Assembly (NCBI GenBank): GCA_045121975.1
Contig: JBGVHB010000059.1
Coordinates: 16,337-80,336 of the forward strand
DNA from: Roseburia sp.
Lineage (GTDB): Bacteria; Bacillota; Clostridia; Lachnospirales; Lachnospiraceae
Reading direction: 5' to 3'
DNA length: 64,000 bases
Part shown: in pieces, positions 53,142 to 53,900 of the stretch
Numbering within the stretch: the first letter of the stretch is position 1
How the letters are laid out: each line of letters starts with the position of its first letter
Made by a program: the position numbers and the translations under genes
Notes under the pieces: model-generated
The model's input: the letters and a program-made list of their open reading frames with translations, nothing else
What the model was told of the DNA's origin: nothing
The model's database searches: none

Positions 53142-53170
53142 TTGAATTTTTGTATATACTATGGTATATT
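53142..53170 (+). promoter_or_regulatory. SigA promoter of the type III TA locus
   Basis: TTGAAT-N17-TATATT with extended -10 TG at 53162. Confidence 0.8.
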
Positions 53171-53176
53171 ATAAAT

Positions 53177-53272
53177 AGAAAAAGCTCATAGAACGTGAGT
53201 TTAAAGAAAGTTCAACAGAAGATTTGGTCGTAGAACGCGACCAAGTAAAATAAAAGAAAAGTTCACTGAGAA
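53177..53272 (+). ncRNA. Type III antitoxin RNA (TenpI-like), two pseudoknot repeats
   Basis: Two hairpins with identical TAGAACG loops, each followed by an A-rich linker and GTTC able to pair with loop GAAC. Confidence 0.78.
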
Positions 53273-53274
53273 GA

Positions 53275-53304
53275 GACAACTCCTGGAAACAGGAGTTGTT
53301 TTTT
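53275..53304 (+). terminator. Terminator between antitoxin repeats and toxin
   Basis: GACAACTCCTG-GAAA-CAGGAGTTGTT plus T-tract. Confidence 0.9.
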
Positions 53305-53432
53305 AATTCATAGGAATTTGCGTAAATTCCTATGAATTAAAAAGCCCTCCGGGCAGGATGCGCATAACGCGCAAGTAGAAGATGTCACTGCGTGACTGCG
53401 CGTTAGCGCGAGAATCTCGCAAGCGAGATTCT
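53303..53432. repeat. GC-rich multi-hairpin cassette (REP-like/structured repeat)
   Basis: Perfect 17-bp stem 53303-53340, GCCC/GGGC, TAACGCGCA/TGCGCGTTA, AGAATCTCGC-AA-GCGAGATTCT. Confidence 0.75.
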
Positions 53433-53453
53433 TTGTTACCATAGGAGAAAAAT

Positions 53454-53900
53454 ATGGCAAAGAAAAAACGTTTCGTATTTTTATCAAAGAAATTCTATAA
53501 TACATATCCAACTTCACTATATCCAGAAATGGAGCAAAAACAGAATAGACCATACATTCAAGTTTGTGTAGAAATTGATGGTGTGCAGTATGCGATTCCG
53601 TTGCGTTCAGACATACACCACCCACATGTTTTTTGGACTGATAAAGAAAATCATTGTGGTGTTGATTTTTCGAAGGCGGTTGTAATTACCGATGAGAGTT
53701 ATATCGATTTTTTTACTGAACCTCATTTGAGACAAAATGAATTTGACGCACTTAGAGGTAAAGACTTTAAAATAAAAAGTAAAATGGAGAAATATATTGC
53801 AGATTATAAAAAAGCAAAGAAAGATTTGAGTAACCCGATAAACCAAACGTTGGTAAAATATTCCACTTTACAGTATTTTGAAAAAGAAATAGGGCTGTAA
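53454..53900 (+). CDS. Type III TA endoribonuclease toxin, TenpN-like
   Basis: FLSKKFY, K.NRPY, AIPLRS, GVDFSKAV, YSTLQYF; repeat-terminator-toxin layout. Confidence 0.82.
   Translation: MAKKKRFVFLSKKFYNTYPTSLYPEMEQKQNRPYIQVCVEIDGVQYAIPLRSDIHHPHVFWTDKENHCGVDFSKAVVITDESYIDFFTEPHLRQNEFDALRGKDFKIKSKMEKYIADYKKAKKDLSNPINQTLVKYSTLQYFEKEIGL

Follow-up and report, generated by a model that had tools for sequence, protein, structure and literature searches.

Two short repeats that share a loop and differ in their stems lie upstream of an open reading frame in the DNA studied here, a window of 64 kb (64,000 nt) from the genome of a Roseburia species. What is this locus, and what does the difference between its two repeats mean? 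The earlier note on this DNA took it for a type III toxin-antitoxin system whose antitoxin repeats keep their structure and diverge in sequence. That description held, and every coordinate in it proved correct on direct reading. We consider the locus very likely to be a TenpIN type III toxin-antitoxin cassette, of the abortive-infection type; the toxin family, catalytic motif, fold, repeat structure with its covariation, terminator and layout of the cassette were computed here.

Layout of the cassette and identity of the toxin

The tenpIN family was defined with repeats of 39–57 nt in 1.9–3.0 copies (Blower et al., 2012; PMC3401426). Its layout, tandem non-coding repeats between a promoter-like site and a terminator, directly upstream of a toxin gene, is what we found, with all features on the + strand. 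A consensus scan places the promoter-like site at 53142–53170, with a -35 element TTGAAT, a 17-nt spacer and a TG-extended -10 element TATATT; a TTGAC(T)/TATATT arrangement is kept in three relatives (L003, L004 and L005), and the transcript is predicted to start at about 53177. Two pseudoknot units follow, repeat 1 (53177–53219) and repeat 2 (53220–53273), and then an intrinsic terminator (53276–53304) with a 10-bp stem (up to 15-bp), a GAAA loop and a T-run, its hairpin spanning 53276–53299. The terminator stem shows compensatory changes in relatives (CTCCCGG/CCGGGAG, CTCCTAG/CTAGGAG), and the whole antitoxin transcript folds at -41.7 kcal/mol (z -7.5). The toxin gene, tenpN, is an intact open reading frame of 148 codons at 53454–53900, preceded by a ribosome-binding site GGAGA at 53444–53448 that is invariant, as AGGAG(A), in the alignment with relatives. 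The order promoter, repeats, terminator, toxin had been read correctly in the earlier note; the terminator does not directly precede the toxin, since a dispersed repeat of about 133 nt intervenes.

A profile search, which the earlier note had proposed for the toxin, puts it in the TenpN family: the protein matches the NCBIfam equivalog model NF047358 (TenpIN) with 154.6 bits (cut-off 90, E 1.8e-45), along positions 1–141 of the 141-position profile. Pfam ToxN and PADLOC AbiQ gave only weak, sub-threshold matches, so the family assignment rests on NCBIfam. The IPLRS motif of the protein contains R51 and S52, which align with R55 and S56 of Escherichia coli TenpN, two residues that are essential there, alanine mutants abolishing toxicity (Nadig et al.; PMC13682666, PMC12283969). 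P49, R51, S52 and H56 are invariant in the toxin alignment, with R51 and S52 retained across nine homologues, down to 51% identity. An AlphaFold2 model of the toxin (pLDDT 89.3) finds as its best fold match in the PDB the Bacillus thuringiensis ToxN (4ATO_A), a statistically weak match (E 0.087, TM 0.49) to which Foldseek assigns a probability of 0.90 and an rmsd of 5.6 Å; MazF ranks next. As far as a predicted model can tell, this rmsd is in line with the 5.4 Å between TenpN and ToxN in the published cryo-EM study (PMC13682666). A sequence search of the PDB with the toxin returned noise matches to Tsi2 only and no match to the solved TenpN structure.

Two antitoxin units with one fold

In repeat 1, the arms AAGCTCA (53182–53188) and TGAGTTT (53196–53202) form a first stem, S1, around the loop TAGAACG (53189–53195), and loop positions 53191–53194 can pair with GTTC at 53210–53213 to form a second helix, S2, with an A-rich connecting loop of 7–9 nt. 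Repeat 2 has the arms TTGGTCG (53224–53230) and CGACCAA (53238–53244), the same loop TAGAACG at 53231–53237, and an S2 helix of 53233–53236 with GTTC at 53261–53264, connected by an A-rich loop of 14–16 nt. Repeat 1 is thus a short unit, about 10 nt shorter than the full-length repeat 2 in the long loop. Its S1 has seven possible pairs in the window, of which just the inner five are kept in relatives, and its hairpin folds at -7.1 kcal/mol; S1 of repeat 2 has seven pairs, extendable to nine, and a hairpin of -13 kcal/mol (z -3.5).

Aligned with each other, the repeats are 62% identical. Comparing the stems pair by pair, four of the seven pairs differ on both sides, one differs on one side (G.U to G-C) and two are identical. 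Pairing is therefore kept, as the earlier note had stated, while its further claim that the stems are completely rewritten goes too far. Its expectation that such an array would defeat sequence-repeat finders was borne out: Tandem Repeats Finder reported no repeat at the locus, and an exact-seed search caught just the 11–13-nt loop cores and an 8-nt match, AAAGTTCA. A covariance model of our own, built from 54 related units and encoding only the first stem (the hairpin), finds exactly two matches, whether it is run on the 64-kb window or on the complete 3.9-Mb genome, namely repeat 2 (53218–53275, 68.8 bits) and repeat 1 (53182–53214, 32.2 bits; E 3e-8 in the window, 8e-7 in the genome), so the repeat pair is not a chance pattern. 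The same scan of 3.9 Mb found no orphan tenpI units elsewhere in the genome. An AGA(A/U) box stands before each unit and after the last one; these boxes fit toxin cleavage at the junctions, where the cut sites would lie.

Covariation supports the pseudoknot

About 100 further loci were gathered from metagenomes and viral contigs, and all matches to our model were aligned. The covariation set comprises 71 distinct units, drawn from some 60 related loci, in an alignment derived from the model, in which S2 is absent. Across the 71 units pairing in the S1 hairpin reaches 99.3%, and each of the seven pairs shows double changes. The helix between the loop and the downstream strand, S2, is 98.6% paired, with double changes at three of its four pairs, and controls in which the partner was slid by 1–3 columns fell to 16–51% pairing. 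Because the model does not encode S2, the pairing of this helix is an unbiased test. Relatives carry the four-mers GAAC/GTTC, GAGC/GCTC, GGGC/GCCC, GGAC/GTCC, GAGT/ACTC, GAAT/ATTC and AAGC/GCTT, and these compensatory changes uphold the pairing of loop GAAC with downstream GTTC that the earlier note had proposed. On comparative grounds, an H-type pseudoknot with an A-rich long loop is well supported as the predicted structure of tenpI units.

Repeat 2 is a 6A RNA

Repeat 2 is also a full-length match to the Rfam family RF02925, ‘6A RNA’ (66.3 bits, gathering score 41.2, E 8.6e-13). Repeat 1 was not reported by this family's model even at E values up to 10, so by the Rfam criterion repeat 2 alone belongs to 6A. 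The Rfam entry describes a candidate structured RNA from comparative genomics, given without function; its consensus has the same hairpin, A-run and GAGC/GCUC complementarity as repeat 2, and its consensus structure holds the hairpin only.

In all 12 related loci scanned, 6A lies directly upstream of TenpN; the Lachnospiraceae relatives have one match each, Collinsella and a Eubacteriales MAG two. Three of 150 genomes sampled from the class carry 6A, always with a TenpN match just downstream of it; in one of the three this TenpN is decayed. Among 401 genomes sampled from the phylum, six are TenpN-positive and three of these have 6A; with 6A in only half of them, we take 6A to be the tenpI of one TenpN subclade. 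The decayed case (L057; G136:C12:13402-13810, - strand) consists of an intact 6A/tenpI unit (58.9 bits) directly upstream of a TenpN that scores 36 bits and has three in-frame stops, an antitoxin RNA that has outlived its toxin. At another locus (L058; G036:C3), two pseudoknot-like units that differ from each other, with GGG/CCC pairing and GAAGAT junctions, stand before a TenpN of 142.9 bits; these units go undetected by Rfam 6A, so the family covers part of tenpI diversity only.

A literature search found no paper that cites RF02925 or that links 6A to tenpI, or tenpI to Rfam. The two TenpIN papers (PMC12283969, PMC13682666) make no mention of Rfam, and the main text of Weinberg 2017 does not mention 6A. 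The association ties the 6A motif to a defined role, that of tenpI, and should be useful for annotation.

A dispersed repeat lies between terminator and toxin

The 133 or so extra nucleotides (53305–53437, +) between the T-run of the tenpI terminator and the ribosome-binding site of the toxin, which the earlier note had overlooked, form a gap in all five aligned relatives. The insert was also seen in none of about 60 further distinct upstream regions that were viewed, one of which (L092) has a long gap of its own. It contains a perfect 20-bp hairpin and three further hairpins, the last (10-bp) followed by TTTGTT, and its four-hairpin fold is predicted at -65.5 kcal/mol (z -8). The right module of the insert occurs in 20 copies in its own genome; in congeners we found fragments only, in one of 12. 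The element is modular, about 110–140 nt long, joining one or the other of two left hairpins to a shared right module, and compensatory changes among copies are seen in its last hairpin (other copies lie, for example, at G000 C78:3474-3625, C91:74740-74888 and C3:77489-77626). No Rfam match was found for it, and a search for left and right modules at least 1 kb apart around a transposase gene found no autonomous parent. Several contigs of the assembly end in this repeat. A possible third, degenerate tenpI unit in 53361–53390, suggested by two short similarities (D1 and D2), was rejected because this stretch belongs to the 20-copy dispersed repeat.

Of 17 copies that could be assessed, 15–16 immediately follow a GC-rich hairpin with a T-run, including two behind tRNA genes. 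The repeat habitually follows terminators, and that of tenpI is just another of its landing sites. Other operons of the family show changes of their own in metagenome loci: at L092 the distance from the two tenpI units to the toxin downstream is about 320 nt rather than about 50 nt, and at L100 unrelated sequence stands in place of the first unit and half of the second, further insertions or rearrangements inside tenpIN operons.

No promoter-like site was found inside the insert on the + strand. With this, and with TTTGTT after its last hairpin, the insert probably lowers read-through into the toxin gene further. Against our preferred reading of a working cassette, an insert whose last hairpin is terminator-like could even have uncoupled the toxin from its promoter. 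In the extreme, the cassette would be crippled: with read-through blocked, tenpN would be silent, and the locus would amount to an orphan antitoxin beside a toxin gene heading to decay. The very stable fold of the insert, its final hairpin and its lack of a promoter-like site would all agree with this, as would its absence from the relatives and the precedent in G136, where a decayed TenpN sits behind an intact 6A unit. We nevertheless think a crippled cassette unlikely, though the chance is real, since the tenpN reading frame, its ribosome-binding site and its catalytic motif are all intact and low read-through is normal for type III systems; the closest copies of the insert are 96–99% identical, so that the insertion may be too recent to be judged by decay. 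A terminator-seeking repeat within the operon amounts to a natural experiment on the level of read-through that a type III toxin requires.

Both repeats are under selection

Is repeat 1 a functional antitoxin unit? Among relatives its 36-nt core is 92–100% identical, and repeat 2 is 85–100% identical in the same set, in which third codon positions of the toxin are 45–71% and the promoter region 55–68% identical. Repeat 1 is conserved far above third codon positions and so is under selection, and these comparisons show purifying selection on both tenpI units. In two relatives (L001 and L002), homology to the window starts only at repeat 1.

Still, repeat 1, being missed by Rfam 6A and having about 10 nt less of the long loop, could be a weaker binder. 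It could also be a decayed partial repeat or leader that supplies the 5’ cut site of repeat 2, which alone would neutralise TenpN; its lower score on the family model (32 as opposed to 69 bits) and the loss of its outer stem pairs in relatives point in that direction, and type III arrays often contain partial repeats, with repeat numbers from 1.9 to 3.0. A relic would not be expected to hold its core at 92–100% while silent sites fall to 45–71%. Short first units elsewhere, moreover, keep the pseudoknot through compensation of their own, as GAAT/ATTC (L080) or GAGT/ACTC (L144 and L135), the arrangement of a short first and a long second unit recurs in 25 of 51 distinct arrays, and in the E. 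coli TenpIN system the shorter repeat rescues growth too. We therefore regard a decayed repeat 1 as highly doubtful, and return to the reading in which both units serve as antitoxin.

The recurrence of the short-first, long-second design concerns two-unit arrays, in a table built by a detector that requires pairing, and in 13 of these arrays the two units have different pseudoknot four-mers. In the cryo-EM study, the lower part of the A-rich loop faces the stem and another part is flipped out (PMC13682666). Repeat 1 retains the lower part of this loop, and the portion that it lacks corresponds to the published flipped-out part. One could imagine that the design is a built-in asymmetry maintained by selection and not a product of drift, from the clade of this locus out to loci with about 50% toxin identity. 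We offer this as a speculation that is quite unlikely to hold.

Other type III loci and genome context

Four type III loci, representing all three families, are present in this genome: one TenpIN, two ToxIN and one CptIN. The ToxN/CptN-type loci are at G000 C8:41273-41734, C40:14714-15289 (- strand) and C122:8106-8594 (L162:507-995). Their arrays measure 1.9 x 37 and 2.8 x 38 nt for the two ToxN loci and 2.2 x 46 nt for the CptN locus, which is a separate locus on contig C122 whose toxin scores 191 bits to NF047359. The cptI repeats of this genome are also non-identical (83% matches). The suggestion in the earlier note that divergent repeats might serve more than one toxin, which the differences at 38% of aligned positions and the other type III toxins of the genome could be taken to favour, is almost certainly wrong. 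The genome encodes a single TenpN, and each of the two ToxN loci and the CptN locus comes with a promoter, a repeat array and a terminator of its own. The parts that meet the toxin, namely the loop, the pseudoknot and the 3’ tail, are common to the two repeats, and in E. coli one TenpN is bound by both of its repeats.

The cassette lies in a low-GC islet (24–36% GC, about 49.6–54.2 kb; window positions 49600–54200) between housekeeping-like flanks, a NifU-like/GGGtGRT gene pair and a chemotaxis receptor gene. Besides the TenpIN cassette, the islet encodes a 294-aa HTH_3 regulator, a 93-aa NERD-domain fragment and a 53-aa match to phrog_6058; several small open reading frames in it gave no family matches. 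We found no flanks shared with related TenpIN loci, so the cassette moves as a unit. Downstream of tenpN, at 54011–54145, a promoter-like TTGAAT-17-TATATT arrangement is followed by about 100 nt with a GC-rich hairpin and T-run at their end. Downstream of this stretch lie another promoter-like site and, at 54342, the chemotaxis receptor gene. The stretch occurs once in the genome, matches no Rfam family and may represent a small RNA or a leader.

Discussion

We can present a proposal for how the cassette would work, in which toxicity, processing sites, stoichiometry and phage defence are inferred only by analogy with characterised systems. A single promoter would give a short transcript that carries the two pseudoknot units and ends at the intrinsic terminator, and occasional read-through would yield the mRNA of TenpN, an endoribonuclease of probable ToxN-like fold. 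By the precedent of characterised TenpIN systems, TenpN should cleave the precursor at the conserved AGA(A/U)-type junctions on either side of each unit, releasing a compact unit 1 (5–7-bp stem, 7–9-nt A-rich loop) and a unit 2 with a 7–9-bp stem and a 14–16-nt loop. Two proteins and two RNAs would then form a closed complex that is inactive. Should the supply of antitoxin fail, for example on phage infection, free TenpN would cleave RNA and arrest the cell. The two units could differ because the toxin would read mainly their tails, leaving the first stem in need of pairing only and thus open to compensatory drift.

Much of this is familiar from the enterobacterial members of the family. tenpI repeats are often non-identical, with up to 35% variation, and escape Tandem Repeats Finder, while keeping the pseudoknot and a conserved A stretch, with covariation in stem 2 (Nadig et al., 2025; PMC12283969). 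Both non-identical enterobacterial repeats rescue growth, bind the toxin and occur in the purified complex, a closed 2:2 protein-RNA ring held mainly via the RNA tails (Nadig et al., 2026; PMC13682666). Divergent-sequence, same-fold tenpI repeats are thus the published norm of the family and are not new here. The TenpIN systems on plasmids of Enterobacteriaceae (E. coli, Klebsiella, Salmonella) share with our locus the layout of promoter, two non-identical repeats, terminator and toxin; the failure of Tandem Repeats Finder; H-type pseudoknots with an A-rich long loop, one repeat being shorter; the catalytic Arg-Ser pair; and a toxin of about 150 aa. They differ in that the two repeats differ in size by 3 nt there and by about 10 nt here. 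At 62%, the identity between the repeats of our locus lies just past the published 35% variation; its host is a gut Lachnospiraceae, its toxin has diverged too far to be matched by plain sequence search, and it has an extra repeat after the terminator.

The founder of the family, TenpIN of Photorhabdus luminescens TT01, is toxic, rescuable and phage-aborting in E. coli (PMC3401426), and no other TenpIN system is known to abort phage infection. Our toxin belongs to the same family by HMM, and the length and number of the repeats are within the family range. CptIN of Eubacterium rectale (4RMO) has a toxin of a different family and is alike in its two-repeat arrays, its closed 2:2 complex and its A-rich-loop pseudoknot with A-minor contacts. 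ToxIN of Pectobacterium atrosepticum and B. thuringiensis (2XDB, 4ATO) is alike in predicted toxin fold (the best, though statistically weak, PDB match), operon logic and abortive-infection role, whereas its repeats are about 36 nt long, near-identical and more numerous, and its complex is 3:3.

The locus is ordinary apart from the small dispersed repeat between RNA and toxin gene, and the current picture of type III systems is unchanged by it. It provides a well-supported example from gut Firmicutes of a family studied almost only in enterobacteria. In the 3.9 Å cryo-EM map the tenpI pseudoknot helices could be modelled only approximately (PMC13682666), and the covariation reported here gives independent comparative support for both of them. 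Finally, the conserved pair of a short and a long repeat bears on how type III complexes assemble. If the asymmetry were indeed selected, the array would encode exactly the two RNAs of one 2:2 complex, a compact and an extended pseudoknot, and the two toxin-RNA interfaces would differ in stability, giving the complex a defined weak point at which to open on infection.
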